A stretch of 64,000 nucleotides of DNA from Candidatus Hinthialibacteria bacterium OLB16 (GTDB lineage Bacteria; Hinthialibacterota; Hinthialibacteria; OLB16), in NCBI GenBank assembly GCA_001567115.1, contig LMZT01000169.1, positions 46 to 64,045 on the forward strand, in the 5' to 3' direction. A model generated the notes under the pieces. That model did not search any database and was not told the DNA's origin. It worked only from the letters and a program-made list of their open reading frames with translations. Each line of letters begins with the position of its first letter. Position 1 is the first letter of the stretch. Position numbers and translations under genes: made by a program. Shown here piece after piece: positions 30,969 through 61,763 of the stretch.

Positions 30969-31700
30969 GTGAATCACAATTCCGCATCGATTGATACAGA
31001 GCAAAACCCACTTGTCCGTCTGACCCATGTTCGCAGAACCTACACCGCCGGAGAAATGGATATTGAAGTTCTGCGGGATGTGAATCTTACTGTGGCCCAG
31101 GGCGAATCGATCGCCATTCGTGGCGTTTCCGGTTCGGGGAAATCCACCCTGCTGAATATTATGGGGGGAATTGACTGTGCAACCTCCGGGCAGGTGGAGG
31201 TATGTGGATGGACATTGAATGGATTATCATCGAAAGAATTCACCCGTTTTCGCCGGGAAAAGGTTGGCTTCATTTTTCAGTTTTATAATCTGCTTCCCAC
31301 CCTTTCAGCCCTTGAAAATGTCATGGTCGGCCCTGAATCAGCCGGATTTCCCCAATCGAAAGCCCGTGCCAGAGCGGAAGAATACCTTGAGGCGGTGGGC
31401 CTCGCCGATAAAGCCTGGAAATTTCCCGAGCAGCTTTCCGGAGGTGAGCAGCAAAGAATTGCGATTGCGCGCGCTCTTGCGAAAGAACCGCCCCTCATTC
31501 TGGCGGATGAGCCTACTGGCAGCCTGGATGAGGATACCGCCGCCATGGTGCTGCAGCTCCTCGACCGCCTCAAACTGGAGCACCGCCTGACCTTTATCGT
31601 TGTAACACACAACCCGGCCCTTTCCGATCACACCGATCGCAGCCTCTTTCTGCACAACGGGTCCCTGTCCGAGCTCACACCGAATCGGATCGCCCACTGA
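30969..31700 (+). CDS. ABC transporter ATP-binding protein (MacB/LolD-like)
   Basis: Walker A GVSGSGKST, signature LSGGEQQRIAIARAL, Walker B ILADEPTGSLD. Confidence 0.85.
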   Translation: MNHNSASIDTEQNPLVRLTHVRRTYTAGEMDIEVLRDVNLTVAQGESIAIRGVSGSGKSTLLNIMGGIDCATSGQVEVCGWTLNGLSSKEFTRFRREKVGFIFQFYNLLPTLSALENVMVGPESAGFPQSKARARAEEYLEAVGLADKAWKFPEQLSGGEQQRIAIARALAKEPPLILADEPTGSLDEDTAAMVLQLLDRLKLEHRLTFIVVTHNPALSDHTDRSLFLHNGSLSELTPNRIAH

Positions 31701-31701
31701 C

Positions 31702-34059
31702 ATGAAGCTTCTGGTGACCCATGTAGTGCGTGCCGGCTGGCGCATTCGATACCGCCTTGCAGCGGTGGCACTGGTGGTTGCGGCTGGATTCGGAATCTAT
31801 GCGGGTGTCTATTCAGCCATCGATCTCCTGTTCGATCGTCGAAACCAGGAGTTTGAGGAAGGGCATGTGGCGGACCTTGAAGTCCGTTTTGCTCCGGAAG
31901 ATTCCCAGCGAATCCCAGATCTCGGCAGCCTGCCAGGCATCGCTGAATCTGAAAGCCGGCTGGTCTTCCCCGGCCAGATGATGCTGGCGGATCAACCACC
32001 GCTGCTGACTTTGATGGTCACGATCGACCCGGTCAATGGAGGCCATATCAACCGGCTGAAGATCCTGGAAGGCGAGGGGATCTCCCGGGACAAACCGGAC
32101 CATGTCGTCATTGATCGCAACATGGCCGCTTTCCATCATCTCAAGCCAGGGGATTCCATCGAACTGGTTATGGCCGATGAGTCCTACCACCTGAAGGTAT
32201 GCGGGATCGGCCTCTCGCCGGAGTTCCTTCTTGCACCCGCCAACCCGCGAGTTTTCATTCCCTCCAAAGGCTCCCTGGGGGTGGTGTATGGGCTTCCCCA
32301 GTTGATTCAGGAACGGGTTGGGCTGCCGATGGTCAACAGCCTGCTGATCCGGCTTAAGCCCGGAGAATCTGTCGAAAAGTGGACCGATGAAATCCTCTCG
32401 AAGCTCGAAGGGCAGCTCCTGCTCGATCAGGTGATTCCCAGCACTGAGCAGTTCGGGAGCCGTTTCCTCGAATTAAGCCTGAATGCATTCCGTGTCTGCC
32501 TCCCGGCGCTGGTGATTGTTTTTGACCTGACTGCCTTTCTGGTGACATTCTTTTTGCTCTTTCAATGGATTGTTCAGGAACGCCGTGAGATCGGCAACCT
32601 GATGGCTTTCGGCTACGACCGTGGGGTGATTGGCCTGGCCTATCTGATTCCGGTGGCGATCCTGGGGATCATCGGCAGTGTGGTGGGCCTGGCGGTTGCG
32701 CTGGCAGCCTCCTGCCTTTTTTCAACCAATTATGCCGATTCCATCGGTTTTCCTCATCCGGAGCTGGCACTCATTCCACACCATATCCTGGTGGGTGTGG
32801 GCGGGGTTGGGGTCATTCTTCTGGCAGCGGTCTCCTGGCCGTTGATCTGGTTATTGCGTCTGACTCCTCTCGAGGCGGTTCGTGAGTCGATGGGGCAGGG
32901 AACTGACCGGCTGGGGATCCTGAAACAGATTCTGGCCTGGCTTCCAGGGCGCATCTGGCTGCGATATGCCATGCGAAATCTGGCGAGAAGAAAATCGATC
33001 TCGGCCATGACCATCCTCTCGGTTGCAGCGGGGTTGGGAGTCACGATCTCCTTCTTCATCAATCTGACTTCGAATGCCGGGACAGCGGTCAACATGATTC
33101 GGAATGATCCCTGGAGTGCCATCCTCGAGTTATTCGCCCCGGTGCCGATTGAAGATGCCCGTGAATTCGAGGCAGTCGATGGAGTTGAGAAGGCTGTTCC
33201 ATTCACCAAACTTTCAGCCCGGCTTGCTGGCCCTTTATCAAAGGAGAACATTGCAATTGGTGGAATTCCTCCGGAATCCGGAATCCGTCAACCGGAAATT
33301 CTGGCTGGCCGGGGCCTGCAGGCGGGGGATCAGGAGGCCCTGGTCCTCGAGAGGAACCTGGCGGAAAAATGTGGTGTACAGATCGGGCAGAAAGTCACGA
33401 TCGATTCCTTCGGAAAGAAAAAAGAAGCAACTGTGGTGGGTTTTCTCTCCGGTGCCCTTCCGGGTGAAGCTTATGTCCCTCTTTCCTGGGCACAGGATAT
33501 CCAGGAGTCCGGGGACCTCTGTTCCGGTTTCTTTCTGATATTCAAGGGAGACCCTGAGCAGACCCGAAAGTCGCTCTTCGAGAAAGGGAATATTGCCCAG
33601 ATTACACTGAAAACAGAGATCGTGGCTAAAATTCTGGAAACCACAGGTGAGAAGGTCGGCATCATCCGCCTCGGAGCGATATTCAGTGTGGTGATTACCC
33701 TCCTGTTTATTTTCTGCAGTGTGTCTTTCACAATCCTTCAGAGGAAGCAGGAATATGTCATGCTGCGGGTGCTCGGGATGAGCGATGGCTCCATTGTCTC
33801 GACCATCATTGCGGAAGTCCTGTTCCTTGGATTGATCGCTGTTTTGCTGGCGATTCCTGTCGGCTACCAGACAGCTCACTTCCTGAACAGCCGTGTCTCG
33901 GAAGCCTGGTTCAATGTGACCCTGGTTGCCGAGATCGGTGATTTTCTGAAAACCCTGATTCCCGGGCTGCTGTTGATGCCGATTGCCGCTCTCGGGGCAA
34001 TCCGGCAGATTTTGCGTGAACCCCTGGACCGAAGCCTGAGAGAACGGCAGTGTGGTTGA
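31702..34059 (+). CDS. ABC transporter permease, FtsX-like, with two FtsX domains and large extracytoplasmic loops
   Basis: 785 aa; two 4-TM FtsX-type bundles; start overlaps the ATPase stop. Confidence 0.75.
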   Translation: MKLLVTHVVRAGWRIRYRLAAVALVVAAGFGIYAGVYSAIDLLFDRRNQEFEEGHVADLEVRFAPEDSQRIPDLGSLPGIAESESRLVFPGQMMLADQPPLLTLMVTIDPVNGGHINRLKILEGEGISRDKPDHVVIDRNMAAFHHLKPGDSIELVMADESYHLKVCGIGLSPEFLLAPANPRVFIPSKGSLGVVYGLPQLIQERVGLPMVNSLLIRLKPGESVEKWTDEILSKLEGQLLLDQVIPSTEQFGSRFLELSLNAFRVCLPALVIVFDLTAFLVTFFLLFQWIVQERREIGNLMAFGYDRGVIGLAYLIPVAILGIIGSVVGLAVALAASCLFSTNYADSIGFPHPELALIPHHILVGVGGVGVILLAAVSWPLIWLLRLTPLEAVRESMGQGTDRLGILKQILAWLPGRIWLRYAMRNLARRKSISAMTILSVAAGLGVTISFFINLTSNAGTAVNMIRNDPWSAILELFAPVPIEDAREFEAVDGVEKAVPFTKLSARLAGPLSKENIAIGGIPPESGIRQPEILAGRGLQAGDQEALVLERNLAEKCGVQIGQKVTIDSFGKKKEATVVGFLSGALPGEAYVPLSWAQDIQESGDLCSGFFLIFKGDPEQTRKSLFEKGNIAQITLKTEIVAKILETTGEKVGIIRLGAIFSVVITLLFIFCSVSFTILQRKQEYVMLRVLGMSDGSIVSTIIAEVLFLGLIAVLLAIPVGYQTAHFLNSRVSEAWFNVTLVAEIGDFLKTLIPGLLLMPIAALGAIRQILREPLDRSLRERQCG

Positions 34060-34144: not shown

Positions 34145-35152
34145 TCAGTTACAACGGGCGTATCTCCTCATTTCATGGAGGTTTTCATGGGGAGTGTCTC
34201 TCGGAACTTCACAACCTGCAGAGACAACATAATTTGGACCGCTTTCCTTGTGGCACCTTTCTGTTTCTCTGAGGACAAAATCCGGGGTTCCATTTCTCAG
34301 GACTGAGACCGGATCGATGTTTCCGAGCAAAACCTGCCCGGGACCCATTCTGTCCCGCGCTTCGCTTACCGGGTTGAGATAATCGAGATCGACTATTTCA
34401 CATCCCAGCTGGCCGATTCCTTCGGACAGGTGGCGTGTGTTTCCGCAGATATGCAGGCGAACCCTTCCACCCATGGCATGGATGCCATCCACAAGTTTCT
34501 TCTCATACGGCCAGATCAGGTCCTGATAGAATTTCTTTCCTACCAGGGATGCAGCTGCATCTCCCATGCCGATGATATCCGCCCCGGCTTCGATCTGCGC
34601 CTTTGCGAAACACAACTCCATTTCGAGGATGAATTCAAACAGGTCGCGGACAAATCCAGGATCATCATAGAAATCCAGCAGGATCGTGTTGATTCCACGC
34701 AAATCCGCAGCTTCCGCGCATGGCCCTTCCACCCAGCCTTCAACCAGCTTGTCATTTTTGACCTTGTCTTTGAGCAGGGCCACTCCTTCGACACGGTCCT
34801 GCATCCGCCCGCCTCCCAGCGGATCTGGAACCTTCAATCGGGCAAGCGATTTTTTGTCATGCAGGAGGGCATGGGATTCATCGATGGCGGGGGGTTGATC
34901 TTCAAAGTAAACAACTCTCGCACCGCAATCCGAGGCTTCCCGTGCCGGATCGGATATGGTCGAAACATGGTCGATATCGAATGTTTCGGCCACATGCAGC
35001 TGGCATCTCGCCAGGACACGATGGTCCCGGGCATAATCCCCATATTTCTCACCGGTGAGGCCTGCCGCGAACATCATTGTAATCGGCATGAAAGGCAGGG
35101 AATCGGTTGGCTTTCCTTCAATCGTGTTCAGAACTCTCTCCAGACCATTCAT
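34145..35152 (-). CDS. Uroporphyrinogen decarboxylase (URO-D) family protein (MtaA/CmuA-like methyltransferase fold)
   Basis: Start MNGLERVLNTIEGKPTDSLPFMP preceded by a GAGGAGG RBS; URO-D fold conserved regions. Confidence 0.65.
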   Translation of the reverse strand: MNGLERVLNTIEGKPTDSLPFMPITMMFAAGLTGEKYGDYARDHRVLARCQLHVAETFDIDHVSTISDPAREASDCGARVVYFEDQPPAIDESHALLHDKKSLARLKVPDPLGGGRMQDRVEGVALLKDKVKNDKLVEGWVEGPCAEAADLRGINTILLDFYDDPGFVRDLFEFILEMELCFAKAQIEAGADIIGMGDAAASLVGKKFYQDLIWPYEKKLVDGIHAMGGRVRLHICGNTRHLSEGIGQLGCEIVDLDYLNPVSEARDRMGPGQVLLGNIDPVSVLRNGTPDFVLRETERCHKESGPNYVVSAGCEVPRDTPHENLHEMRRYARCN

Positions 35153-35381
35153 GTTCGAATCCTCCTCGCTTCGGGAATGCCTCGATCTTACATCTTTACC
35201 CAGCTGGATAGCAGGTGCCCCGCCTGTTTTTTCCCGGGTCCGAGGCCTCCCCTTCGAAAGGTATTGATACCTCTCCAGACCCATACAACTTGCAACTGGC
35301 GGTATCAAGAGATAAATTACAACCATCTTGTCCGAAAAAGAAATGAACACATCGACCGGGTGAAATCAGGCTTTGAATTGA

Positions 35382-36779
35382 ATGATGCTGCGCCGTATAT
35401 CTGGTTTTTTGGTACTCCTTCTAGCCTTTTCACTCCTGGTGGCCTGGCGCTGTATTTCTCCGCGGATGGCCACTTCGCCACGGCTACCGATTCCAGCCAA
35501 CCACCCCTCTGCACAAACAAGCGGTGCTTCGGAGGGAAACCCGGGATCACTCAGTGTGGGGACAGGCAAACCCGGGCCTGAAACTGGTGTGTGGCCCTGT
35601 TTTCGAGGTCCAGCTCGCAATGGGATTGTCACCTCTCCACGAATTACAGCCTGGCCGGAAAAAGGTTTGCAGCCTCTCTGGAAAATCAAGGCAGGGGAAG
35701 GCCATGCGGGTGTGGCCATTGATTCCGGACGGGTGTTCCTTCTCGACTATGATGAGAGCCGGAAAGAGGATGCCATTCGCTGCCTGTCATTCACCACAGG
35801 AGAAGAGATCTGGCGCTATTCCTATTCGGTTAAAATCAAGCGGAACCATGGCATGTCGAGAACAGTTCCCGCTGTCGCCGGGGATTATGTGGTCACACTC
35901 GGCCCCAAGTGCCATTTATGCTGCCTGCAGGCTGCAAGCGGCGAACTGGTCTTCAAAAAGGATCTGGTGAAGGAATACGGCACCCGCATCCCGGAGTGGT
36001 ATGCCGGCCAATGCCCCTTGATCGATGATGGCCGTCTGATCCTTGCGCCGGGAGGCTCCTGCCTGATGACCGCAATCGAACTGGCTACTGGAAACACCCT
36101 CTGGCAGACCCCGAACCCGGAGGGCTGGCAGATGAGCCACTCCTCGATCCTGGCAATCGATTTCGAAGGGGAACGGATGTACATCTGGTGCTCATCCGAT
36201 GGAGCGGTCGGAATCCGAGCGGCGGATGGGGCACTGCTGTGGTCACTGCCCGAATGGAAAATCAAAATCGCTACCATCCCCACCCCCATCGAGATCGGTC
36301 CGGGAAAAATCCTGTTCACAGGCGGATATAATGCCGGAGCGGCAGCCTATCAGCTCGAACACCATGAAGGTGGAATTCGCCCAGCCGAGGTCTTTCGTTG
36401 CGATGCAAAAACCTATGGATCCGACCAGCAGACTCCGGTTTTCCATAATGGCCTTGTTTTCGCTGTGATTCCGGGCGGGAAACCAGCCTGTCTGACTCCT
36501 GATGGGAAAAGACAGTGGATTGAGGAGGATTACAACTTCGGTTTAGGCCCGTATCTGCTTTTCGATGACAAGATGCTGATCCTCGATGATGATCACAACA
36601 AGCCTGGGGAGTTGACCCTTTTCCAGATCGAGCCTGCAGGGTTGAAGCGTCTTGCCGGTGCAAAAGTCATCGAAGGTCATGATGCCTGGGCGCCGATGGC
36701 CTATGCCGATGGGCGGATCATTCTCCGGGATGCCACCACACTGGTGTGCCTGGATGTGTCAGGAAGTGGGGCTCCATGA
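35382..36779 (+). CDS. PQQ-like beta-propeller repeat protein (BamB/YVTN-type), signal-anchored
   Basis: N-terminal hydrophobic segment, repeated W-x-Y/F-x-G beta-propeller blades (LWKIKAGEGHAGVAIDSGRVFL, LWQTPNP..., LLWSLPEW...). Confidence 0.65.
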   Translation: MMLRRISGFLVLLLAFSLLVAWRCISPRMATSPRLPIPANHPSAQTSGASEGNPGSLSVGTGKPGPETGVWPCFRGPARNGIVTSPRITAWPEKGLQPLWKIKAGEGHAGVAIDSGRVFLLDYDESRKEDAIRCLSFTTGEEIWRYSYSVKIKRNHGMSRTVPAVAGDYVVTLGPKCHLCCLQAASGELVFKKDLVKEYGTRIPEWYAGQCPLIDDGRLILAPGGSCLMTAIELATGNTLWQTPNPEGWQMSHSSILAIDFEGERMYIWCSSDGAVGIRAADGALLWSLPEWKIKIATIPTPIEIGPGKILFTGGYNAGAAAYQLEHHEGGIRPAEVFRCDAKTYGSDQQTPVFHNGLVFAVIPGGKPACLTPDGKRQWIEEDYNFGLGPYLLFDDKMLILDDDHNKPGELTLFQIEPAGLKRLAGAKVIEGHDAWAPMAYADGRIILRDATTLVCLDVSGSGAP

Positions 36780-37708
36780 AAAACCTGACTGCCTTCCTCA
36801 AAACCTTCTGTGGGCCGGTTCTGCTGATTCTGGCTGGCATGGCATTTGGCTACTTTGCCACCCTCAAAGCCTATCCGCCTTCCCCCCATTCCGAGGGCAA
36901 ACCAGCGGCCTCAGTCCAGCTCAAATGCATCACCATCAGCCCGGATGACCGTATTTATGTGGGAGGATCCTTTGGGATTGCTGAGGTGAATACGGACCTG
37001 CAATTGAAATCACTCTTTGAACTCCCGGAAGTGGCCCAGGCTCTGGCGGCTGACACGGAGGGGAATTTTTACATTGGTTACCCGGCTGCAATTGAGAAAA
37101 GGGACTCGAAAGGGGACCTGCTGCTGCGCTGGGGGCGAGGGGGATGCGGTGGGGATGCATTCAGTTATGTTACTGGCATTGCAGTCGATGCCTCCAATGT
37201 CTTCGTCGCCGATGCCGGGCTCCGGACTGTTTTCCGGTTTTCAACCGATGGCATTCCCCTGAATGAAATATCCGGAAAGACAACAGGAGCCACAGGCACC
37301 GGTTTCTTCGTTCCAACCCCCTATTTCGATTGTGCTGTCAAAGATCAGTCCCTGTATGTCACTAATCCTGGCTGCCTGAGGGTCGAGCGCTATACCTATA
37401 AGGGGGATCTGCTCGGCTACTGGGAGCAGTCATTCGATGATCCGGACCATTTTCCCGGCTGCAGCAATCCGACACACCTGGCCATTTTCCCTGACCTGCA
37501 TGTTGCCGCTTCTCAAAAAGGGAAAGCCTATGTCCGGATTTACACAAGCGAGGGCAAGCCGGTTCTCGATCTCGGGCGGGATATTTTTCCTGAAAGCACA
37601 CGAGGCCTTGATGCAGCGGTAGACAGCAAAGGCCTGCTGTATGTAGTCGATCCACATGCACTTTGTGTCCGTAAGTTCGATATCTCAGCTGCGGCGGGAA
37701 AATCATGA
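36776..37708 (+). CDS. NHL-repeat beta-propeller protein with N-terminal TM anchor
   Basis: ATGA overlap with the upstream gene; TM helix FCGPVLLILAGMAFGYF; NHL-like blades (FYIGYPAAIEKRDSKGDLLLRWG, VTGIAVDASNVFVADAG, LLYVVDPHALCVRKFD). Confidence 0.6.
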   Translation: MKNLTAFLKTFCGPVLLILAGMAFGYFATLKAYPPSPHSEGKPAASVQLKCITISPDDRIYVGGSFGIAEVNTDLQLKSLFELPEVAQALAADTEGNFYIGYPAAIEKRDSKGDLLLRWGRGGCGGDAFSYVTGIAVDASNVFVADAGLRTVFRFSTDGIPLNEISGKTTGATGTGFFVPTPYFDCAVKDQSLYVTNPGCLRVERYTYKGDLLGYWEQSFDDPDHFPGCSNPTHLAIFPDLHVAASQKGKAYVRIYTSEGKPVLDLGRDIFPESTRGLDAAVDSKGLLYVVDPHALCVRKFDISAAAGKS

Positions 37709-37744
37709 ACCGAACCGAGCCGCACATCATCCTGATGGGAGGAG

Positions 37745-38317
37745 ATGAAGATGAGTAAACCAGATCCAGCCGAGGGCCGAAGATCCTTTCTTGAAAAAAT
37801 GACCAAAGGAGTCAGCTTCTTTGCCTTGGGAGGAGTGACCGGCAAGCTGCTTTCCAATGCCCTGCGTGAAGAAATGGTCTGGCAGATCGATCCACTGAAA
37901 TGTATTCAGTGTGGCAATTGTGCGACTGCCTGTGTCCTGACCCCCTCCGCAAGCAAATGTTACCATGATTTTTCGATGTGTGGTTACTGCCGGGTCTGTA
38001 CCGGATTCTTTCCAACCGATCCGACCACACTGGATGAAGGTGCGGAGAATCAGCTCTGCCCGGTCGGAGCGATCCAGAGGAAATTCGTCGAAGAGCCTTA
38101 TTATGAATATGAGATCGATCGAACACTCTGCATCGGGTGCGCACGCTGCGCCAAAGGGTGCACATCCTATGGGAATGGCTCCCTGTATATGCAGATCGAT
38201 CGCACCCTGTGTGTGAACTGTAACCAGTGCGCCATAGCGCTGGTTTGTGAAGGCAAAGCATTTTCAAGAGTGCCTGTGGAGCAACAGTATGTCCTGAAAG
38301 GCTCCAGAATGTCATGA
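37745..38317 (+). CDS. Tat-exported ferredoxin-type protein with four [4Fe-4S] motifs (NapG/MauM-like)
   Basis: Twin-arginine motif GRRSFLEK then a hydrophobic region; four CxxCxxCxxxC(P) clusters (CIQCGNCATAC, CGYCRVCTGF, CIGCARCAKGC, CVNCNQCAIALVC). Confidence 0.8.
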   Translation: MKMSKPDPAEGRRSFLEKMTKGVSFFALGGVTGKLLSNALREEMVWQIDPLKCIQCGNCATACVLTPSASKCYHDFSMCGYCRVCTGFFPTDPTTLDEGAENQLCPVGAIQRKFVEEPYYEYEIDRTLCIGCARCAKGCTSYGNGSLYMQIDRTLCVNCNQCAIALVCEGKAFSRVPVEQQYVLKGSRMS

Positions 38318-39423
38318 AGGGCTTTGGGGTCGCATGTTGCCTGCTGCTGGCGGCCATTCCAGGCGGGTATGCCGAACGCAGGTTCCCACCTCCGGACTTT
38401 GAAACCGGCTACACCCAGCCACCGGTTGTTTTCCAGGAGGTTCGGACCCCTGTATCGCAATATGTTGACCTCACTCTGCTGGTCGTCTGTCTGGCCATTG
38501 GAACCTGGCTGCTGCATTACCGTCGGAGCCGGCGTGGAATTTTTCTCCTGGGGCTGTTTGCAGTCCTCTACTTCGGTTTTTATAAAAATGGCTGCATCTG
38601 CCCGATCGGGTCGATTCAGAATGTGACACTCGCACTGCTGGATCCCCATTACCCCATCTCTCTTGCTGTCATCGGGATATTCATTGCGCCTCTTTTGTTC
38701 TCTCTCTTTTATGGAAGGGTATTTTGTGGAGGAGTTTGCCCGCTGGGGGCAATCCAGGATCTTTTTCTGTTCCGGACCCTGAGGGTTCCACGGTGGCTCG
38801 AGGGAAGCCTGGGGCTGTGCCGTTATTTTTACCTCGGCATTGCCATCTATACAGTGGCAGAGTATTCGCGCTTTGTGATCTGCGAATACGATCCCTTTGT
38901 GGGCTTTTTCCGTATGAGCGGACTCCCCTGGAAATTAGGCCTGGGTGCGGCGCTGCTGGGAATCGGGCTGTTTATCCCACGCCCCTATTGCCGCTACCTG
39001 TGCCCTTATGGCGGCTTGTTATCACTGCTGGCGCGCAGGTCATCCACCTGGGTGAGAATCACCCCCACAGACTGCACAAACTGCACATTGTGTGATGCGG
39101 CCTGCCCTTATGAGGCCATTCTCCGCCCGGAAGAACCGATTCGCCCTGAAGGAAGCTGGCGCTTCAAAATTATTCTGGCCAGCCTGGGGGTGATGGCGCT
39201 GTTTATTGCATCTGGATTCTATCTTTTCGGAACCGCCCTGAGTGGAATCCTCCTCAGTACCTGGTTTGGTGTCGTTATCGCTTCAAAAATGATGACCCAG
39301 GCCTTTTCGAACCGCCGCAACCACTTTGAGACCGATCACGCGGCCTGTTTATCCTGTGGCCGCTGTTACGAATACTGCCCTTATGGAAAGACAATGCAGG
39401 AGATCGATGCACATGCTGGATAA
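38314..39423 (+). CDS. Integral-membrane iron-sulfur protein, NapH/MauN/CcoG-like
   Basis: 4 TM helices with two CxxxCP motifs (FCGGVCPLG, YCRYLCPYGG) and two C-terminal ferredoxin motifs (CTNCTLCDAACPYE, CLSCGRCYEYCPYG); ATGA overlap with the upstream gene. Confidence 0.8.
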   Translation: MKGFGVACCLLLAAIPGGYAERRFPPPDFETGYTQPPVVFQEVRTPVSQYVDLTLLVVCLAIGTWLLHYRRSRRGIFLLGLFAVLYFGFYKNGCICPIGSIQNVTLALLDPHYPISLAVIGIFIAPLLFSLFYGRVFCGGVCPLGAIQDLFLFRTLRVPRWLEGSLGLCRYFYLGIAIYTVAEYSRFVICEYDPFVGFFRMSGLPWKLGLGAALLGIGLFIPRPYCRYLCPYGGLLSLLARRSSTWVRITPTDCTNCTLCDAACPYEAILRPEEPIRPEGSWRFKIILASLGVMALFIASGFYLFGTALSGILLSTWFGVVIASKMMTQAFSNRRNHFETDHAACLSCGRCYEYCPYGKTMQEIDAHAG

Positions 39424-41140
39424 TCTCCTGGCATTGTTTGACAGGAAAACTACAATTTACCTTGTCGCTGCAAGCGGAGTGTTTTCGCTGGTTGTCATAA
39501 TTGGCCTCTGTTTTGATGGGCTGTGGTATCGCCCGATGCCTGTCTTTGATGTCCCGCTTCTTGAGATGAGGGAGACACTGAGAAAGAACCCTCAAGACCA
39601 GGCCTTGCGTGAAGAGATTCGCCATCTGGACCAGGTGGTTCGCCAGGATTTCATCACCACAAGAAAGCGTCTGCTGGTTGGAGGATACCTCCTGTTCTTC
39701 AGCCTCCTGATTTTTGTCCTGTCGTTGCGAAGATGGACTGTGCTGCAGCAGAAATTGCCGGAACCCCTCCTGTTGTCTCAGCTGGCCGAGCATCCCCAGG
39801 CACAAATGAATTTATTCAGAACTCTCGCCTTTTTCTGCATCCCGCTGGCGCTGCTCTCACTCTATGGGCTTTCATATCTGAAGCACCACCCCCAAATCGT
39901 AAATGAGGCAGGTCTTCAGGCTCCTCAACCACCAGGGCCACCGCTCGAAATTCTGGTGCCTGACAATCAGAAATGGCCTCAACTGCGCGGGCCAAAGGGG
40001 TCAGGGGTTGTCGATGATCCCAATCTGCCTGTTTCATGGGATGTCGAGAAGGCTGAGAATCTTGTCTGGAAAGTTGAAATTCCGGGGAAAGGCCACAGCT
40101 CGCCAGTGATCTGGGGGGATCGCCTTTATATCACGACCGGGGATTTCGAAAGCCGGAAGGTCCTCTGCTACCAGCGAAGTGATGGGAACCTGGTGTGGTC
40201 CTGTGCACTGAGGACCAATGCACAGCTGGATGAAGAGCTGAAGGAAGATGAGGGGGATACCGGCCTGGCTGCTCCGACTGCTGTCACCGATGGACATTAC
40301 ATTGTCGCATTCTTCGGAACCAATGAGATTGCCGGAATCGACAGAGAGGGCCGCCAGATCTGGTCAAGATGGTTCGGCCCTCCGGACAGTGATTTCGGAA
40401 TTGCATCTTCTCCCATTCTCTCCGGGTCAACCGTTTACCTGCAGCTGGATCAGGGAAGCAAAGAAAAGAAGCATTCCATGCTCTATGCTCTGGATATTGC
40501 CAGCGGAAAGCCCCGTTGGGAGATCCCCCGTGAGGTCCCCTGCTCCTGGAGCACTCCGATTCTGGTTGAAAGCAATGGACGGAGCGAACTGATCACTGCC
40601 GCCGATCCATGGGCCATATCGTATGATCCGGTCAGTGGAAAGGAAATCTGGCGCGCGAAAGTTTTGTCCGGTGCAGTTGCACCCATGCCCGCATCCTGCA
40701 ATGGATTCTTTTTTACAGCGACAGAATATTCACAGCTGGCCGCCATCAAAACGGGTGGGCAAGGCGATATCACCGAAACCCATGTGGCCTGGACCATGGA
40801 AAGTGACCTCCCGGATGTAGCCGGCATGGTCACTGATGGAAAACTGCTGATCCTTCCCAATGGGACCGGTAAGGTGCGCTGCTTCGATGTATTGACTGGA
40901 AAACGAATCTGGACTCAGGAGTATGACAATGGTTTCTGGTCAAATCCAACCCTGAATGGTGATCTTGTCTATATGACTGATATGGAAGGGACGACTTTCA
41001 TTTTCAAACTGGCTGATAAATACGAAGAGGTTGGCCAGGGGAAATTCGGAGAGCCTGTTCTGACTTCATTTGCTGTCGCAGACTCACGTTTCTATGTCCG
41101 CGGCGAAAAATACCTTTATTGCCTGGGGAAACCCCAATGA
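39407..41140 (+). CDS. Membrane-anchored PQQ-like beta-propeller repeat protein
   Basis: Two N-terminal TM helices then an 8-blade PQQ-type propeller (LVWKVEIPGKGHSSPVIWGDRLYITT ..., KPRWEIP..., KEIWRAKV..., KRIWTQEYD...). Confidence 0.7.
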   Translation: MHMLDNLLALFDRKTTIYLVAASGVFSLVVIIGLCFDGLWYRPMPVFDVPLLEMRETLRKNPQDQALREEIRHLDQVVRQDFITTRKRLLVGGYLLFFSLLIFVLSLRRWTVLQQKLPEPLLLSQLAEHPQAQMNLFRTLAFFCIPLALLSLYGLSYLKHHPQIVNEAGLQAPQPPGPPLEILVPDNQKWPQLRGPKGSGVVDDPNLPVSWDVEKAENLVWKVEIPGKGHSSPVIWGDRLYITTGDFESRKVLCYQRSDGNLVWSCALRTNAQLDEELKEDEGDTGLAAPTAVTDGHYIVAFFGTNEIAGIDREGRQIWSRWFGPPDSDFGIASSPILSGSTVYLQLDQGSKEKKHSMLYALDIASGKPRWEIPREVPCSWSTPILVESNGRSELITAADPWAISYDPVSGKEIWRAKVLSGAVAPMPASCNGFFFTATEYSQLAAIKTGGQGDITETHVAWTMESDLPDVAGMVTDGKLLILPNGTGKVRCFDVLTGKRIWTQEYDNGFWSNPTLNGDLVYMTDMEGTTFIFKLADKYEEVGQGKFGEPVLTSFAVADSRFYVRGEKYLYCLGKPQ

Positions 41141-41973
41141 TTGTCACAGGTCAACAGGAGATCGTGCTTGCTGAGGTTGACCGGATTGTAGAAACAGTCG
41201 GCGGCAATGGCCAGCAGGTTATACAAATTCTCCAGGCGATACAGGAAAAATACCGCTATCTTCCCACAGAAGCGCTGGAGCGTGTTTGTGAGCTCACTGA
41301 TATATCACCGGCACGCATTGCAGGGGTTGCATCATTTTATTCCCAGTTCCGATTCAACCCGGTGGGGCTGCATCAGATCCGGGTGTGCCATGGAACTGCC
41401 TGCCATGTCAAAGGCTCAGCTCTGGTCCAGGATTCCATTGAACGGCACCTTGATATCGGAATGGACAGGGACACGACAACCGATGGCCTTTTCACAGTTG
41501 AAAAAGTTGCCTGTCTGGGATGCTGCACTCTTGCTCCGGTTGTTCAGATCGATGACCTTGTTTATGGGGGTCTGACACCCGACAAGGTTCCTGTAGTCAT
41601 CAGAAGCTTCCTGAATAATCCACAGCTGCGCAATGGCTCGGTTGAAACACAGGCAGATGATGAAGCAATCGAGAATGTTTTCGGTGAAATTCGGATCGGA
41701 CTGGGATCCTGCTGTGTTGCCAAAGGAAGCGACCGGTTGAAAACCGCGCTCGAAGATGCGATTCGAGAAACAGGCGCACGCGCTGTCGTCAAAAGGGTTG
41801 GCTGTGTGGGAATCTGCCATCAGACCCCACTCATCGAAGTGATTGCTCCCGACCAGACATCTCATCTCTATGCCGACCTCAAACCGACTGAAGCAAAGAA
41901 CCTTGTCGTCAAACATTTTCCCGAGGCGGTCGGTTTTCAAGAAAATCAGCCATTCTCTCAACCGTGTGCTTGA
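41137..41973 (+). CDS. NuoE-like [2Fe-2S] subunit fused to a thioredoxin-like [2Fe-2S] ferredoxin domain (HndA+HndB-like)
   Basis: NuoE motifs VCHGTACHVKGS ... CLGCCTLAPVVQID; second domain IGLGSCCVAKGS ... VGCVGICHQTPLIEV. The 3' end overlaps the next ORF in a different frame (possible fusion, see findings). Confidence 0.75.
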   Translation: MIVTGQQEIVLAEVDRIVETVGGNGQQVIQILQAIQEKYRYLPTEALERVCELTDISPARIAGVASFYSQFRFNPVGLHQIRVCHGTACHVKGSALVQDSIERHLDIGMDRDTTTDGLFTVEKVACLGCCTLAPVVQIDDLVYGGLTPDKVPVVIRSFLNNPQLRNGSVETQADDEAIENVFGEIRIGLGSCCVAKGSDRLKTALEDAIRETGARAVVKRVGCVGICHQTPLIEVIAPDQTSHLYADLKPTEAKNLVVKHFPEAVGFQENQPFSQPCA

Positions 41974-43507
41974 AAAAATATTCCAGGATGATGCCTGGGA
42001 ACCGGTTGACAGATTTTCCATTCATGTTCGTGATGAACCGGTTTCTGCCTTTCTGAGCCGCCAGATCCACATTGCGACAGAGCATGGAGGAACACTGAAT
42101 CCATTTGATCTCGAGGAGTACATCCACCACCAGGGATTCGCTGCACTTAGAAAGTGCCTTGAATCGTATACGCCCGCCCAGATCATCGACCAGATTGCTG
42201 AAAGCGGATTGAGAGGAAGAGGGGGCGCCGGTTTTCATTCAGCGACAAAGTGGCGAAAGGTCCGCGAATCTCCCGGAGAGATCAAATATGTCATCTGTAA
42301 TGGGGATGAGGGTGATCCAGGAGCATTCATGGACCGGATGCTGCTCGAATCCTTCCCGTTCCGTGTCATCGAAGGAATGATTATCGCGGCTTATGCTGTC
42401 GGCGCATCCGAGGCTATCTTCTATGTGCGTGCAGAATACCCGCTGGCTTTGAAAGTCCTCCGGCGAGCGCTGGCGCTTTGTGAAGGGAATGGTTATATCG
42501 GCGGCAATATCCTGGGGAGTGATTACTCAATTCATTTCCATATCGCCGAGGGAGCCGGAGCCTTTGTTTCCGGGGAAGAAACTGCACTGCTGGCATCAGT
42601 TGAAGGGAAGAGAAGCATCCCGAGAATCAGGCCGCCTTACCCTGCGGAAAAAGGGCTATGGGATCAGCCCACGCTCATCAACAATGTCGAAACATATTCC
42701 CTGGTGCCATGGATTCTGCGTGAAGGGGCTGAGTCCTTTGCAGCCCTTGGAACAGCCACCAGCAAAGGGACCAAAGTGTTTGCCCTTGCAGGAAAAGTGA
42801 AACGGGGTGGTTTGATCGAAGTGCCGATGGGGATCACCATCCGGGAGGTTGTTAATGAAATTGGTGGCGGTGTTGCAGATGGAAGGCAGTTCAAAGCGGT
42901 TCAGGTAGGTGGCCCGTCTGGCGGCTGTGTTCCTGCAGCACTTGCTGATACTCCCATAGATTTCGAAGCGCTCCAGTCAATCGGGGCCATCATGGGATCC
43001 GGTGGGCTGGTCGTTTTGGATGATACGGATTGCATGGTGGACATTTCCAGATACTTTCTGCAGTTCACTCAGAATGAGAGCTGTGGGAAATGCACACTGT
43101 GCCGCATTGGTTCCAAGCGGATGCTTGAAATTGTCACCCGTTTGTGTGAAGGGAAAGGGCGGCCACAGGATATAGGCATTCTCGAAGAGCTGTCTGCCGG
43201 AATGAAAGCGGCCAGCTTCTGTGGTCTGGGAAAAACCGCCCCCAATCCGGTCTTGACTTCGCTCCGTTATTTTCGTGAGGAATATCTTGCGCATGTGGAA
43301 GGCCGCTGCCCGGCCGGAAAATGCAAGGCATTGATCCGCTACAGGATTGAGGACCACTGTATTGGCTGCACAATCTGCGCACAGCACTGTCCAGTCGGTG
43401 CAATCCATTCAATCCCCTACCAGCTGCATACCATCGATGATTCACTCTGTGTGCGTTGCGACATGTGCCGTTCGGCCTGTCCCGAGAAAGCAGTCAAGGT
43501 GGTTTGA
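41843..43507 (+). CDS. NuoF-like NAD(P)H-binding flavoprotein subunit with C-terminal 2x[4Fe-4S] ferredoxin domain (HydB/HndC/StnB-like)
   Basis: SGLRGRGGAGF, FMN/NADH-binding GDEGDPGAF, ESCGKCTLCR 4Fe-4S, C-terminal CIGCTICAQHCP and CVRCDMCRSACP. The true start is uncertain: either GTG near 41957 or fused to the upstream gene through a T4 homopolymer frameshift at 41934-41937. Confidence 0.8.
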   Translation: MLPTRHLISMPTSNRLKQRTLSSNIFPRRSVFKKISHSLNRVLEKIFQDDAWEPVDRFSIHVRDEPVSAFLSRQIHIATEHGGTLNPFDLEEYIHHQGFAALRKCLESYTPAQIIDQIAESGLRGRGGAGFHSATKWRKVRESPGEIKYVICNGDEGDPGAFMDRMLLESFPFRVIEGMIIAAYAVGASEAIFYVRAEYPLALKVLRRALALCEGNGYIGGNILGSDYSIHFHIAEGAGAFVSGEETALLASVEGKRSIPRIRPPYPAEKGLWDQPTLINNVETYSLVPWILREGAESFAALGTATSKGTKVFALAGKVKRGGLIEVPMGITIREVVNEIGGGVADGRQFKAVQVGGPSGGCVPAALADTPIDFEALQSIGAIMGSGGLVVLDDTDCMVDISRYFLQFTQNESCGKCTLCRIGSKRMLEIVTRLCEGKGRPQDIGILEELSAGMKAASFCGLGKTAPNPVLTSLRYFREEYLAHVEGRCPAGKCKALIRYRIEDHCIGCTICAQHCPVGAIHSIPYQLHTIDDSLCVRCDMCRSACPEKAVKVV

Positions 43508-43510
43508 CCC

Positions 43511-45499
43511 ATGCCAGATATGGTTTCACTGATAATTGATGGCATACCGGTCCAGGTGGCCTCGGGAGAGACGATCCTCCAGGCTGCAGAGAAATCCGGC
43601 ATTCAAATCCCCACACTCTGCTTCATGGAAGGCCTTGCCGACCTGGAATCCTGCGGTGTGTGTGTGGTCGAAGTGGAGGGAAACCCAAATCTTCTTCCAT
43701 CCTGTGTATCGAGATGCCTGCCTGATATGAAAATCCGTACTGATTCCGAAAAGGTTCGAAAGGCCAGGAAGCTGGCACTCGAACTGTTGTTGTCGGACCA
43801 TCTCGGGGATTGCCAGGCGCCCTGTGAACTGGCCTGTCCTGCGGAAATTGACATCCCCGAGTTCATTCGGCAGATACGATACAACCATCCGGACAAAGCC
43901 CTGCGAGTTATTCTGGAAAAGATCGCCTTTCCGGGAGTTCTCGGCAGGATCTGTCCCAAGTTCTGTGAAGGTGTCTGTCGTCGTGGGGAATATGATGAGC
44001 CTGTTTCTATCTGCTCCCTGAAAAGATTTCCGGCAGACATCGTTCCACAGGATATTAAACAGCAGCAGCACTCTGCTGTTGTCAGGTCCGGAAAGAAAGT
44101 TGCAATCCTCGGTTCTGGTGTCGTTGGCCTGACTGCAGCCTATTATCTCACACTCGCCGGGCATGAGTGTATTGTCTTTGAGGCTGCACCGAGGCCTGGC
44201 GGGGCGATGAGGAATATCATTCCGGAATTTCGACTTCCCGCACAGGTGATTGATGATGAAATTGCGGACATTCAATCACTTGGTGTCAAGATTCACTGCA
44301 ACCAGGCCCTCGGAAAGGATGTTTTCCTGGATGACCTGCGAAATGAATATGATGCAATTCTGCTGGCTATTGGTGCAAATGGGGAAAAACATCCAACCTT
44401 CTCCGGTTCTGATCTGGGCCAATCGTGTTTCAACTTCCTCGAACAGGTTGCCTATGGTGCCTGCACATCGGTTGAGAAAAATGTAGTCATCATCGGCTCC
44501 GGGCCTACCTCTCTGGATTCTGCAAGAACATGCCTGCGGCTGGGAGCTGAAGAAGCCACCATGATAATCCCGTCTTCGCAGCGCACCCATTTCTTCTTTA
44601 CACCGCAACTGCAATACGCGCTTGAAGAAGGTGTCAAGATTCATTATGACAGTGAGATATTATCCACTGCCATCGGAGCAAACCGGCAGATTTCGTGTGA
44701 AGTGAATACCTCTGGAGATCGTTGGGTGATAACTGCGGACCAGATTTTCCTCTCCGGGCATGTCGAGGCTGATGTCCAGCTGCTGGAAGAACTCGGATTC
44801 AAAACCCTCCGGGGAGGAGTCCAGATTGATAAGAAGACCCTGGAAACAAATATCCCGGGGGTCTTTGCGGCCGGCAACATCGCCCAGTCCGGCCGGTATG
44901 CGGTCCATGGCTCGGCTTCAGGCCGGATTGTTGCCGAGTCTATTCATCGTTACCTCACTGGCATCCCGCCACAGCCCGAATGGATCAATGTTCGGATGCA
45001 GCATCTGACAGAGGATGAAAAGGAACTTCTGGGGAAAGACCGGCATGACATTTCACGATTGATGGATTTGATTCTTTCTCCTGAATTCCGTTCCCATAAT
45101 TTCGAGGAATTCAATCAGGGACTCACTACAGATGCAGCGATCAAGGAAGCGGCACGCTGCCTGAACTGTGATTGCGCCAGCAAAAGAGAGTGCTCACTTC
45201 GCATCCAGTCGACATTATGCGATGCAAATCCACGGGCATTTCGTGGAGACAGGCCGGCCTTTGAAAAAGATGATTCACACCCGGATATTGTTTATGAATC
45301 CGGCAAGTGCATCAAATGCGGGCGCTGCATTGCTATTGCGGAGCAGCACCGTGAAAAGTATGGCTTGACCTACATCGGCAGGGGATTTTCAGTCAAAGTG
45401 CAGACACCGATCATGGGAAAAATCGCCGAGGGCCTTTCTCTGGTTGCGATTGAATGTGCCAAGGCCTGTCCGACCGGAGCACTCTCCAGAAAGCGGTGA
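43511..45499 (+). CDS. Fusion of a NuoG-N-terminal-type [2Fe-2S]/[4Fe-4S] ferredoxin domain with a glutamate-synthase-small-subunit-like (GltD/NfnB) FAD/NAD(P)H oxidoreductase (StnA-like)
   Basis: N-terminus IDGIPVQVASGETILQAAEKSGIQIPTLCF ... CGVCVVEVEG; dinucleotide folds KKVAILGSGVVGLTAAYYL and VVIIGSGPTSLD; AGNIAQ; C-terminal Cys cluster CIKCGRC. Confidence 0.8.
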   Translation: MPDMVSLIIDGIPVQVASGETILQAAEKSGIQIPTLCFMEGLADLESCGVCVVEVEGNPNLLPSCVSRCLPDMKIRTDSEKVRKARKLALELLLSDHLGDCQAPCELACPAEIDIPEFIRQIRYNHPDKALRVILEKIAFPGVLGRICPKFCEGVCRRGEYDEPVSICSLKRFPADIVPQDIKQQQHSAVVRSGKKVAILGSGVVGLTAAYYLTLAGHECIVFEAAPRPGGAMRNIIPEFRLPAQVIDDEIADIQSLGVKIHCNQALGKDVFLDDLRNEYDAILLAIGANGEKHPTFSGSDLGQSCFNFLEQVAYGACTSVEKNVVIIGSGPTSLDSARTCLRLGAEEATMIIPSSQRTHFFFTPQLQYALEEGVKIHYDSEILSTAIGANRQISCEVNTSGDRWVITADQIFLSGHVEADVQLLEELGFKTLRGGVQIDKKTLETNIPGVFAAGNIAQSGRYAVHGSASGRIVAESIHRYLTGIPPQPEWINVRMQHLTEDEKELLGKDRHDISRLMDLILSPEFRSHNFEEFNQGLTTDAAIKEAARCLNCDCASKRECSLRIQSTLCDANPRAFRGDRPAFEKDDSHPDIVYESGKCIKCGRCIAIAEQHREKYGLTYIGRGFSVKVQTPIMGKIAEGLSLVAIECAKACPTGALSRKR

Positions 45500-45627
45500 C
45501 TCAGTGAGCTGTACCGGTGGATAGGTATCTCTGCTCCAACCCATGGGGCAGTGTGGCTCTCTGCTATCTTTAACAGAATCAAAGATCGTTGTGCTCGCCC
45601 TGAAAAAAGTGGATACGCAGGCCAGCC

Positions 45628-47084
45628 TCAGCCCAGCCCCAGCCTTTGAATCTTTTTCAATAACCCCCGCCGGGTCAGCCCAAGCATCTCCGCTGCATGG
45701 GTTTTGTTTCCATTCGTTTCCTGCAGAGCTTTCCGAATCAGACGTTTTTCCAGGAGATTGGTGACCTCTCTGAGAGATGAGGAATCAGCTTCGAGGTCCG
45801 GAATGTATGGCGCTTTTCCTAAGGAAAGCAGAATTTTTCGAGAGACCAATTCTTCTGTAAGGATGGAGTCGTATTTCCCCAGGATGACCATCTGCTCAAT
45901 TTCATGTTTGAGCTGGCGGCAATTGCCAGGCCAGGAGTAATCAAGAAACATCCGCATGACCCTGGGGTGGATCTTTTTAGGCTCCAAACCCGCTTCCTTA
46001 ACCGCCTGATCCAGGAAATACTCCACCAGAATAGGGATCTCCTCAGGGCGTTCCTGGAGTGATGGAACTGTGATCGTCAACACACTCAGCCGGTAGAAGA
46101 GGTCCTCACGGAACTTTTCCTTCTGCGATCCAGCGTTCCAAATCCTGGTTGGTTGCAGCAATGATGCGCGCATCCACTTGAATGGTGCGTGTCCCACCCA
46201 CCCGTTCAAAAACGCCCCGATTCCAGAAACCTGAGCAGCTTGGCTTGTATGTTCATGGGGGCATCGCCGATCTCATCCAGAAGAAGAGTTCCCCCCTCAG
46301 CCATTTCGACCATCCCCTTCTTGATGGAGTTAGCCCCGGTAAATGCCCCTTTTTCATGGCCAAAGAGCTCGGATTCCATCAATGTTTCCGTCATGTTGGC
46401 ACAGTTCAAATCAATAAAGGGTTTGCTTTTCCGGCTCGAGTTTTCATGAAGAATTTCGGCAATCAGATTTTTTCCCGTGCCAGTCTCTCCCTGAATCAGC
46501 ACCGGAGCATCGTTATCGGAAAACAGTTCCAGACGGCGCCGGAGATCCTTCATCGCTTTCGATGCACAGATAAGGCGGTCGAAAGCAAACATCTGAGACA
46601 AGTTGCGTGTTTTCCCCGGTTCTAAAGCCAGCGGGACATTGAAAGTGCGGCCTGCGATATCCTCCACAAGCTCCATCACCGCAAAGATTTCCCCACTCTT
46701 ATCACGAAGTGGGATTGCCACAACCTCAAAATGCTTGAAGACAATGCCTTCCTGATTGCGGCTGGGAGCAACACGCCGGACTAATTTTCCGGTCTGGAAT
46801 GCAATTTTCGAGGCACACCAGGGGCAGACTTCCTCGCGTTGATCGTCATTCATATAGGCCTGAAAACAAAATGCCGCCGCCCGAGTTGGTCTATCCGGGA
46901 AAAATGACTGCTGGTGCTGGTTGACGTAGATAATCCGCATATCGCGGTTGACGATATTGATCCCGAAGGGGAGTGCATCTAAAGCGGACAGCGCAAAATC
47001 CTGCACTGAGAAAGGGAGTAAGTCCTCCACAATCCGCTCACCATTAGAGCCGGTCAGACTGGTGATAGATTTCTTTGTCGACAT
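45628..47084 (-). pseudogene. Sigma-54-dependent transcriptional activator (PAS sensor, AAA+ and Fis-type HTH), interrupted by two 1-nt homopolymer insertions near 46208-46212 and 46115-46118
   Basis: ORFs 46206-47084 and 45628-46209. A third frame between them reads [31 protein letters not shown], the conserved sigma54-interaction region. Walker A GETGTGK, GAFTGA motif, ESELFGHEKGAFTGA, C-terminal AAEMLGLTRRGL HTH. Confidence 0.85.
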
Positions 47085-48036: not shown

Positions 48037-48120
48037 ATCTTTAATTTAAACAAGTTTTCAGGCTGTAACGTGCCTTTGTGCTGAGGGCATGCCGAATCGA
48101 ATAGAAGGAGGCTAAAGACA

Positions 48121-61714: not shown

Positions 61715-61763
61715 ACCGACAGGTTTGCCTGGCATGCCTGTTTAATTGAGAAAGGAGGTTTTT

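Follow-up and report, generated by a model that had tools for sequence, protein, structure and literature searches.

For the NapH-type membrane proteins known so far, either quinol is the presumed electron source or transfer is presumed to run through covalently bound flavins, and the Bfu/Nfn enzymes known so far pass low-potential electrons to soluble ferredoxin inside the cell. In the NapGH (Escherichia coli), MauMN and NosGH systems, the gene for a four-cluster ferredoxin with a twin-arginine translocation (Tat) signal lies directly upstream of the gene for a PF12801 membrane protein with CX3CP and two four-cysteine (Cys4) motifs. The same architecture is present in the 64,000-nucleotide stretch of Candidatus Hinthialibacteria bacterium OLB16 that we analysed (contig LMZT01000169.1, positions 46 to 64,045; hereafter the window), where the pair lies in a cluster of seven genes and has as its conserved partner an NAD(P)H enzyme and not the quinone pool, with no nap genes nearby. 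We think it reasonably probable that the pair supplies the periplasmic and membrane subunits of a conserved complex that has a cytoplasmic face of the NfnABC/Stn type and three anchored beta-propellers outside, and that works independently of quinone.

The closest published concept is the flavinylated 'NapH-like' extracytosolic electron transfer of Meheust et al. (2021), which is defined by an ApbE-flavinylated FMN-binding domain (PMC8238504). The likeness to our cluster is that in those systems, as in NosR and PceC, a modular NapH-like Fe-S protein serves periplasmic oxidoreductases, among them the propeller enzymes NirS, ExaA and NosZ (PMC8238504). Here, in contrast, a Tat ferredoxin replaces the FMN-binding domain and the genes for the cytoplasmic donor module are present in cis; no Pfam match to FMN_bind or ApbE was obtained in the NapH-like protein, its cluster neighbours or the clusters of relatives that were scanned.

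On the cytoplasmic side, the FAD of NfnA in NfnABC/Stn enzymes oxidises NADPH, the FMN and clusters B1 and C1 bifurcate the electrons, and the low-potential electrons exit to ferredoxin via clusters B3/B4 in the C-terminal domain of NfnB (PMC11829005). A survey of the Bfu family described, besides 17 clades of unknown function, the Mbh-Bfu and Nuo-Bfu types, which are membrane-bound, and does not mention NapH-like or propeller partners (PMC9304861). The Rnf complex, too, is a membrane assembly in which an NAD(H)-binding subunit and a polyferredoxin are joined to electron carriers at the outer face, but the system in the window has another architecture, without RnfA/D/E/G homologues, covalent flavins or evident ion-translocating subunits. 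The cluster is not described in the literature that we found, including papers on Hinthialibacterota (PMC9324843) and on Bfu enzymes, in a search that left out most subscription journals, so that an earlier description is possible. It is apparently a widespread, conserved and uncharacterised module that unites two known kinds of system, NapH-like conduits and the Bfu family, in a new way.

The ferredoxin and the NapH-like membrane protein

The original prediction for this locus named a NapG/MauM-like and a NapH/MauN-like gene at 37745-38317 and 38314-39423, and both open reading frames (ORFs) are present there, overlapping by 4 nt. They belong to a run of seven tightly packed plus-strand genes (35382-45499) in the order bp1, NHL, ferredoxin, NapH-like, bp3, NuoEF and NfnA-like, which overlap by 4-17 nt or are separated by gaps of at most 36 nt. 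Flanking of the pair by beta-propeller and NAD(P)H flavoprotein genes, as first described, agrees with the Pfam assignments.

The ferredoxin gene (37745-38317, plus strand) encodes 190 aa that match Fer4 families in Pfam. The protein begins with MKMSKPDPAEGRRSFLEK, followed by a hydrophobic stretch, contains GRRSFLEK, and has 16-17 cysteines in four ferredoxin-type groups. The twin-arginine signal (RRSFLEK) and the four cysteine groups that had been proposed for this ORF were borne out in an alignment of 77 orthologues, in which the RR and all cysteine groups are conserved in at least 90%. Export by the Tat route is predicted. Judged by its sequence, the ferredoxin is NapG-like in architecture only: its BLAST alignment to E. 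coli NapG is limited to the signal peptide and the cluster motifs, the NapG/MauM model is absent from its nine NCBIfam matches at E ≤ 0.01, and the top match in a sequence search of the Protein Data Bank (PDB) is a generic one, to the Fe-S subunit 9mqx_E (3e-06).

The second gene (38314-39423, plus strand) encodes a 369-aa membrane polyferredoxin of the NapH/NosR/YccM superfamily, with Pfam matches to Fer4_5 (PF12801) and generic Fer4. It shares 26% identity over 185 aa with E. coli NapH and 28% over 187 aa with E. coli YccM, and it scores below the NCBIfam cutoffs for NF007013 (NapH; 69.2 bits vs 234), TIGR02163 (NapH/MauN; 67.3 vs 213) and NosR (38 vs 1000). The designation of the pair as NapG/MauM- and NapH/MauN-like therefore stands for architecture and superfamily and falls for family membership, as the NapH cutoffs were missed and the NapG/MauM model was unmatched.

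One CxCP, two CX3CP and two Cys4 motifs are found in the NapH-like protein, with a predicted transmembrane (TM) hairpin between the two Cys4 motifs. The CxxxCP and two-cluster motifs had been noticed before; both CX3CP motifs and both C-terminal CxxCxxCxxxCP motifs are present and invariant in 40 homologues. Alignments of 14 and of 40 homologues show as invariant an N-terminal RFPxPxF motif (R23, F24, P25, P27 and F29), G-C94-x-C96, C138xxxC142P, C190-x-x-D-P and C226xxxC230P, and the Cys4 motifs C254/257/260/264 (C264P) and C345/348/351/355 (C355P). An N-terminal signal or anchor and about seven TM helices are predicted from hydropathy and from an AlphaFold2 model whose pLDDT is 76 overall and lowest around the Fe-S sites; in the model the helices are located at 46-70, 73-90, 117-133, 160-184, 205-217, 280-305 and 309-330. 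This replaces the four TM helices first attributed to the protein and differs from NapH, which has four TM helices and a cytoplasmic N-terminus. Compared with the NapGH, MauMN and NosGH membrane proteins, the one in the window has in addition a signal or anchor, the RFPxPxF motif and C190, both invariant, a further pair of TM helices with CxCP, and the hairpin between the Cys4 motifs. A Foldseek search of the model against the PDB gave nothing better than E 0.5, so that the protein appears to be without a solved relative.

Over 40 NapH-like sequences, the mean net charges of the predicted cytoplasmic loops are +4.0, +2.0, +3.1 and +1.3, and those of the predicted periplasmic loops -1.1, +0.4, 0.0 and +0.5. 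Such positive-inside alternation would put both CX3CP and both Cys4 motifs in the cytoplasm; by the same charge rule C94, C96 and C190 are predicted to lie at the periplasmic face, and the conserved N-terminal motif is likewise predicted to be on the periplasmic side. Neither NapH nor YccM of E. coli has cysteines equivalent to C94, C96 and C190, and these three residues may complete a transmembrane Fe-S path. YccM resembles the window protein as a NapH-superfamily polyferredoxin of unknown function, and relatives of the window protein are auto-annotated 'YccM', but YccM has neither the periplasm-facing cysteine triad nor the N-terminal motif and is encoded outside any such cluster.

The absence of nap and mau catalytic genes from the window had been part of the original prediction. 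Pfam scans of the 51 largest ORFs in the window gave no molybdopterin oxidoreductase or other nap/mau catalytic domain, the sequences of MauA and MauB themselves not having been searched, and BLASTP of E. coli NapA, NapB, NapC and NapG against the six-frame ORFs of the window and of 85 related loci gave none at E ≤ 1e-3. For napA and napB, the absence is confirmed by both methods; for mauA and mauB, it has the support of the Pfam scans. The 85 related loci also provide the NapH-like homologues without NapA, NapB or NapC whose comparison had been proposed. We consider it very unlikely, because of the conserved synteny described below, that napAB or mauAB would be encoded just outside the window, and we rejected membership of the pair in a Nap or Mau system on the hidden Markov model cutoffs and the absent partner genes.

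Conserved partners and gene fusions

The last two genes of the cluster encode the cytoplasmic partners. NuoEF (41137-43507, plus strand) is a NuoE-NuoF (BfuC-BfuB/NfnC-NfnB-like) fusion with the Pfam domains 2Fe-2S_thioredx, Complex1_51K, NADH_4Fe-4S and a C-terminal Fer4 pair. Its PDB matches are 9bov_B (3.7e-199), NfnB 9n5u_B (1.9e-192) and HydB 8a6t_B, and it aligns to the end of the NfnB/HydB chains (E 1e-180 to 4e-199), including the C-terminal 2x[4Fe-4S] domain. The features of Bfu members are present, namely the BfuB core (FMN/NADH site and NADH_4Fe-4S), the C-terminal 2x[4Fe-4S] and the BfuC [2Fe-2S] domain. NfnA-like (43511-45499, plus strand; 662 aa; Pfam Fer2_4, Fer4_20, Pyr_redox_2 and Fer4_Nqo3) encodes a truncated NfnA/StnA-like protein with a 2Fe-2S N-terminal domain, an NfnL/GltD-like FAD/NADPH domain and Fe-S motifs, and without the Fdh-like C-terminal half. 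Residues 6-659 align to 5-672 of the 1178-aa 9bov_A (E 1e-116), and further matches are NfnA 9n5u_A (8.4e-108) and 8oh5_C (2.3e-103). The missing Fdh-like half is probably a non-functional remnant in NfnA (PMC11829005).

As close homologues, NuoEF and NfnA-like together are predicted to be a bifurcating flavoprotein of the NfnABC/Stn type (Bfu family). They align to NfnB/HydB and to the N-terminal and NfnL-like regions of NfnA in the known NfnABC/Stn enzymes (9bov, 9n5u and 8oh5), but differ in that NfnC and NfnB are fused, the Fdh-like half is missing, the genes lie within a membrane/periplasmic cluster, and fusions to a membrane anchor occur.

To place the cluster among genomes, we searched an alignment of NapH-like homologues against 185,579 species-representative genomes, which yielded at least 599 relatives; an exhaustive HMMER scan of 1.84 billion representatives gave 321 clusters at E ≤ 1e-30. 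The best 80 of the at least 599 relatives, with 10-kb flanks, formed the synteny sample, in which the window proteins were compared by BLASTP with six-frame ORFs and each component was counted only at loci with sufficient flank. Nearly all of these 80 loci have the same collinear order. The ferredoxin gene is directly upstream of the NapH-like gene at 75 of 76 loci, bp3 is present at 65 of 66, NHL within the cluster at 69 of 74, a bp1 orthologue at 64 of 69, NuoEF at 53 of 56 and NfnA-like at 46 of 50, and Pfam-annotated contigs of more distant homologues show the same arrangement. The cluster was found in at least nine phyla (Bacteroidota, Planctomycetota, Omnitrophota, Verrucomicrobiota, KSB1, Calditrichota, Spirochaetota, Armatimonadota, Poribacteria and Hinthialibacterota), and its carriers among the Bacteroidota include Paludibacter and the cultured Draconibacterium orientale, Marinifilum fragile and M. 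flexuosum. A donor or acceptor partner other than that of Nap and Mau, to be sought among the products of the neighbouring propeller and flavoprotein genes, as originally predicted, is strongly supported by the same gene order in 82 non-self loci, by the fusions described next and by the lack of nap genes.

Two types of natural fusion link the NapH-like protein, bp3 and NuoEF. The bp3 gene (39407-41140, plus strand) encodes 577 aa, with three N-terminal TM helices and a PQQ_2 beta-propeller (Pfam PQQ_2 4.2e-24). Among the top 150 NapH-like representatives, 10 have the length expected of NapH-like::bp3 fusions (973-1136 aa), and a C-terminal PQQ_2 domain was found in all seven that were scanned; the fusion P0291 aligns to bp3 residues 45-577 (32% identity, E 7e-102) and is encoded between the ferredoxin gene and NuoEF. 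At locus L076 (Puniceicoccaceae) the propeller is missing, and the TM1-loop-TM2 anchor of bp3 (29% identity over 89 aa, E 2e-8) is fused to the N-terminus of NuoEF in a protein of 1019 aa; the N-terminus of this protein as query matched no further anchor::NuoEF fusion at E ≤ 1e-5. Both fusions are compatible with the predicted topology, in which the C-terminus of the NapH-like protein, the N-terminus of bp3 and the bp3 segment after TM2 are all inside. They argue for one physical complex, with bp3 as the likely scaffold joining its membrane and cytoplasmic parts. An apparent fusion at locus L083 was rejected as an assembly gap (a run of X).

These observations bear on the description of the pair as a quinol dehydrogenase, which was the label first given to it. 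In that case a true NapGH-type quinol dehydrogenase would pass electrons from menaquinol to a propeller reductase, and NuoEF and NfnA-like would form a soluble Nfn transhydrogenase that is merely co-located. The membrane protein is homologous to NapH and YccM, and four loci have no Nfn-like genes nearby, both of which speak for such an arrangement; yet NuoEF is adjacent at the 53 of 56 loci noted above, in many phyla, both fusion types tie the membrane part to the cytoplasmic part, NfnA-like is consistently truncated relative to soluble NfnA, and the periplasm-facing cysteines specific to the subfamily are missing in NapH, whose thresholds the window protein failed. We hold this alternative to be improbable. 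As the pair falls short of the NapG and NapH thresholds and has an NAD(P)H enzyme of the NfnABC type as its conserved partner, we set the label aside and regard a quinone-independent route as more likely.

Beta-propellers and the proposed electron route

The first two genes of the cluster encode further propellers. bp1 (35382-36779, plus strand; 465 aa) is a PQQ_2-type beta-propeller (Pfam PQQ_2 4.9e-21) that is predicted to be exported or membrane-anchored, and NHL (36776-37708, plus strand; 310 aa), whose start overlaps the bp1 stop by 4 nt, is an NHL-repeat beta-propeller (Pfam NHL 4.1e-05) with an N-terminal membrane anchor. As bp1, NHL and bp3 each begin with a hydrophobic anchor behind basic residues, all three propellers should face the periplasm.

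The AlphaFold2 model of bp1 (pLDDT 89) has eight blades and an N-terminal helix at 2-24. Among solved folds, BamB and tetrathionate hydrolase come closest (15-18% identity); bp1 shares with these and with PQQ dehydrogenases the eight-bladed PQQ_2-type fold, but has invariant pocket residues of its own. Specific to the orthologues are K153, R154, N155, H156, G157, S159, R160 and T161; Q210 and C211; M251, H253 and S255; and Q349 and T351. D122, Y123, D124 and D450 are further invariant polar residues. The invariant polar residues lie in the D-to-A loops leading to the innermost strands, the usual active-site face, and bp1, with a predicted pocket lined by invariant Cys, His, Met and Arg residues, is a candidate catalytic subunit. 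In NHL and bp3 the conserved residues are mostly structural. PDB sequence searches with the three propellers gave generic matches only, those of NHL being to TRIM2/3 NHL domains. Against the PQQ-dehydrogenase model TIGR03075 bp1 and bp3 score 17.3 and 34.4 bits (cutoff 480), and against the BamB model TIGR03300 23.8 and 46.9 bits (cutoff 285), a resemblance at the level of the fold only.

Bacteroidota loci (for example L016, 141-6553; L035, 154-6553; L011, 2909-6668) carry one to five tandem PQQ_2 propeller paralogues upstream of bp1 that are 20-25% identical to it. As these conserve residues of their own (E, Y, H and H at bp1 positions 210, 253, 438 and 450), they form a distinct conserved propeller family.

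The gene content, homologies, conserved synteny, fusions and motif conservation of the cluster point to subunits that would form one complex with a membrane-spanning Fe-S chain. In the route that we propose, NADPH would be oxidised at the FAD of the NfnA-like subunit, and the FMN/Fe-S site of NuoEF would split the electrons between NAD+ and a low-potential branch. Whereas soluble Nfn reduces free ferredoxin, this branch would here enter the NapH-like protein at its two cytoplasmic [4Fe-4S] motifs. Electrons would then cross the membrane by way of a cluster bound between the two CX3CP motifs that face the cytoplasm and a next site formed by the three invariant periplasm-facing cysteines C94, C96 and C190, from which they would pass to the Tat ferredoxin and on to a propeller protein that reduces a periplasmic substrate. 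The best candidate for the last step is bp1, because of its invariant pocket. Quinone would not be required at any point of this route.

We favour an outward flow, from NADPH to the periplasm, because NapGH, NosR and PceC all feed periplasmic reductases, because the Nfn of Caldicellulosiruptor runs from NADPH to ferredoxin, and because the propellers show no dehydrogenase cofactor. The same complex could instead run inward, the propellers being periplasmic dehydrogenases whose electrons would reach the cytoplasm via the ferredoxin and then the NapH-like protein and there, in confurcation with NADH, yield NADPH. The PQQ_2 fold is common to quinoprotein dehydrogenases, NapH-like proteins adjoin the PQQ alcohol dehydrogenase ExaA in 172 genomes (PMC8238504), and the tandem propeller paralogues of Bacteroidota resemble a substrate-diversified set of dehydrogenases; Stn/Nfn enzymes, moreover, are reversible (PMC11829005). 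However, the propellers score 17-34 bits against the cutoff of 480 of the PQQ-dehydrogenase model, the nearest folds, BamB and tetrathionate hydrolase, are without cofactor, and an all-[4Fe-4S] chain into a bifurcating site requires a very low-potential periplasmic donor, of which the gene content suggests none. An inward direction therefore seems to us unlikely, if less so than a quinol dehydrogenase.

Further genes recur at these loci on the strand of the cluster. Clustering of the remaining ORFs found four families, which overall occur in 23-35 loci: one more BamB-like propeller at 29 loci, a GT4 glycosyltransferase at 32, a LolD-like ABC ATPase at about 30 and a large duplicated FtsX/MacB permease at 23. 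In Bacteroidota, Calditrichota and Armatimonadota they are downstream of the cluster; in Planctomycetota and at L090 they precede it (upstream at L020, L028, L054, L081 and L090). The window itself has a LolD-like ABC ATPase (30969-31700, plus strand; Pfam ABC_tran) and an FtsX/MacB-type permease (31702-34059, plus strand; Pfam FtsX and MacB_PCD), and this pair (30969-34059) is a possible accessory of the module, which we propose with lower confidence. GT4 and the extra propeller are not present in the window, and the window permease has no BLAST match to the planctomycete permease of L020.

By analogy with NosR, NirI and MauMN, the cluster might, instead of serving respiration or redox balance, be a maturation or maintenance device that supplies the reductant for assembling a cofactor or an envelope component or for maintaining its activity. 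Relatives of NapH and NosR recur beside propeller enzymes and support the maturation of these enzymes (cf. PMC8238504), and such a role would suit the GT4, extra propeller and LolD/FtsX-type ABC families in 23-35 loci as well as the MacB-type pair just upstream in the window. It fits poorly with a cluster that contains no target enzyme of known cofactor, with the lack of GT4 and the extra propeller in the window, and with the large stoichiometric investment that a full Nfn-type enzyme represents; we give it little credence.

Several points weigh against the quinone-independent outward route that we prefer. The topology of the NapH-like protein comes from a simple charge rule and a model of medium confidence (pLDDT 76), and the spatial clustering of the conserved bp1 residues was read from strand order. 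No redox cofactor signature was recognised in any of the three propellers, and the reversibility of Stn/Nfn enzymes noted above leaves the direction less constrained. The 80 loci are the closest of at least 599 relatives, so that their frequencies describe one subfamily and not all PF12801 proteins. Four loci (L040, L059, L065 and L088) have the ferredoxin, NapH-like and propeller block without NuoEF or NfnA-like genes within reach, which makes the two halves genetically separable. GT4, the extra propeller and the MacB-type ABC system hint at an envelope-related role that a terminal reductase does not explain. Finally, a single inserted nucleotide at 41916, where a TTTT run has gained one T, breaks the reading frame of NuoEF in the window; NuoE-NuoF is one uninterrupted gene of 787-789 aa at loci L001-L005 and a single 789-aa gene in near-identical contigs (Candidatus Hinthialibacteria OLB16 / 'Omnitrophica COP1' assemblies).

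A more far-reaching proposal, which we put forward tentatively and think more doubtful than the complex itself, is that this is the first case of flavin-based electron bifurcation hard-wired to a transmembrane Fe-S chain, in which an Nfn-type enzyme using NADPH, with NAD+ as co-acceptor, would deliver very low-potential electrons through the NapH-like protein and the periplasmic ferredoxin to a new family of redox propellers, independently of quinone, in at least about 600 species of at least nine phyla. bp1, with its Cys/His/Met/Arg pocket and the fold of tetrathionate hydrolase as the nearest to its own, would perhaps act on an anionic sulfur substrate or on an envelope substrate. A conserved module uniting the two kinds of system would be a new quinone-free way to move strongly reducing electrons across the cytoplasmic membrane. 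The carriers are abundant heterotrophs of sediment and wastewater or associated with sponges (Bacteroidota, Planctomycetota, Verrucomicrobiota, Omnitrophota, Hinthialibacterota and others), and the module would affect models of their redox balance and of their periplasmic and extracellular chemistry. It would also give testable roles to several large families whose present annotation goes no further than '4Fe-4S binding protein' or 'PQQ-like beta-propeller repeat protein', and experiments are feasible in the cultured carriers Draconibacterium orientale DSM 25947, Marinifilum fragile JCM 15579 and M. flexuosum DSM 21950.

Neighbouring genes and other features of the window

The cluster at locus L088 (3628-6156, minus strand; genome of 10 Mb) has on its flanks type II secretion genes and the gene for a protein of 842 aa with an HZS_alpha (hydrazine-synthase-alpha-like) domain. 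At L090 (1-2999), the ABC genes and the cluster are directly preceded by genes for squalene-hopene-cyclase-like, polyprenyl synthase and prenyltransferase proteins, and a terpenoid-cyclase-like ORF family recurs in five loci. Extra genes within the clusters of L011, L019, L050 and L072 were set aside as unrelated insertions (a DUF1016-like nuclease, an ATPase, a TonB receptor and a glycogen phosphorylase).

In the window, a URO-D/MtaA-CmuA-family methyltransferase-like gene (34145-35350, minus strand) is divergent from the cluster; it is retained in the closest relatives only (L001-L003, L006 and L007), and for this reason we rejected it as a core gene of the module. We likewise rejected control of the cluster by the adjacent sigma-54 activator (45628-47084, minus strand), there being no -24/-12 match upstream of bp1; over the whole window such matches are at chance level (61 observed vs 67 expected).

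The window differs from three near-identical public contigs by nine single-base insertions (41916; 46115, 46208 and 46871-46888; 45557-45559; 48085), which split NuoE-NuoF and the sigma-54 activator, the latter intact at 483 aa in the other contigs. They look like homopolymer or assembly errors and not biology. A GH95-like glycosidase (Glyco_hyd_65N_2 and GH95 catalytic/C-terminal domains) and a type I phosphodiesterase (5956-8300 and 21086-23379) also look split into adjacent or overlapping ORFs, the pieces of the phosphodiesterase covering profile positions 1-112 and 148-323, which fits additional assembly frameshifts.

Proteins with a prepilin-type N-methylation motif are encoded at 27285-28040 (minus strand) and 47401-49614 (plus strand), one of them followed by a Laminin_G_3 protein, a pattern frequent among PVC-group and related bacteria. 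A tRNA-Ala (TGC; 207-282, minus strand) is the sole Rfam or ARAGORN match within the window. Near the end of the window, Cas3 (HD and helicase) and Cas5d genes (59474-62477) fit a type I-C-like CRISPR-Cas locus.

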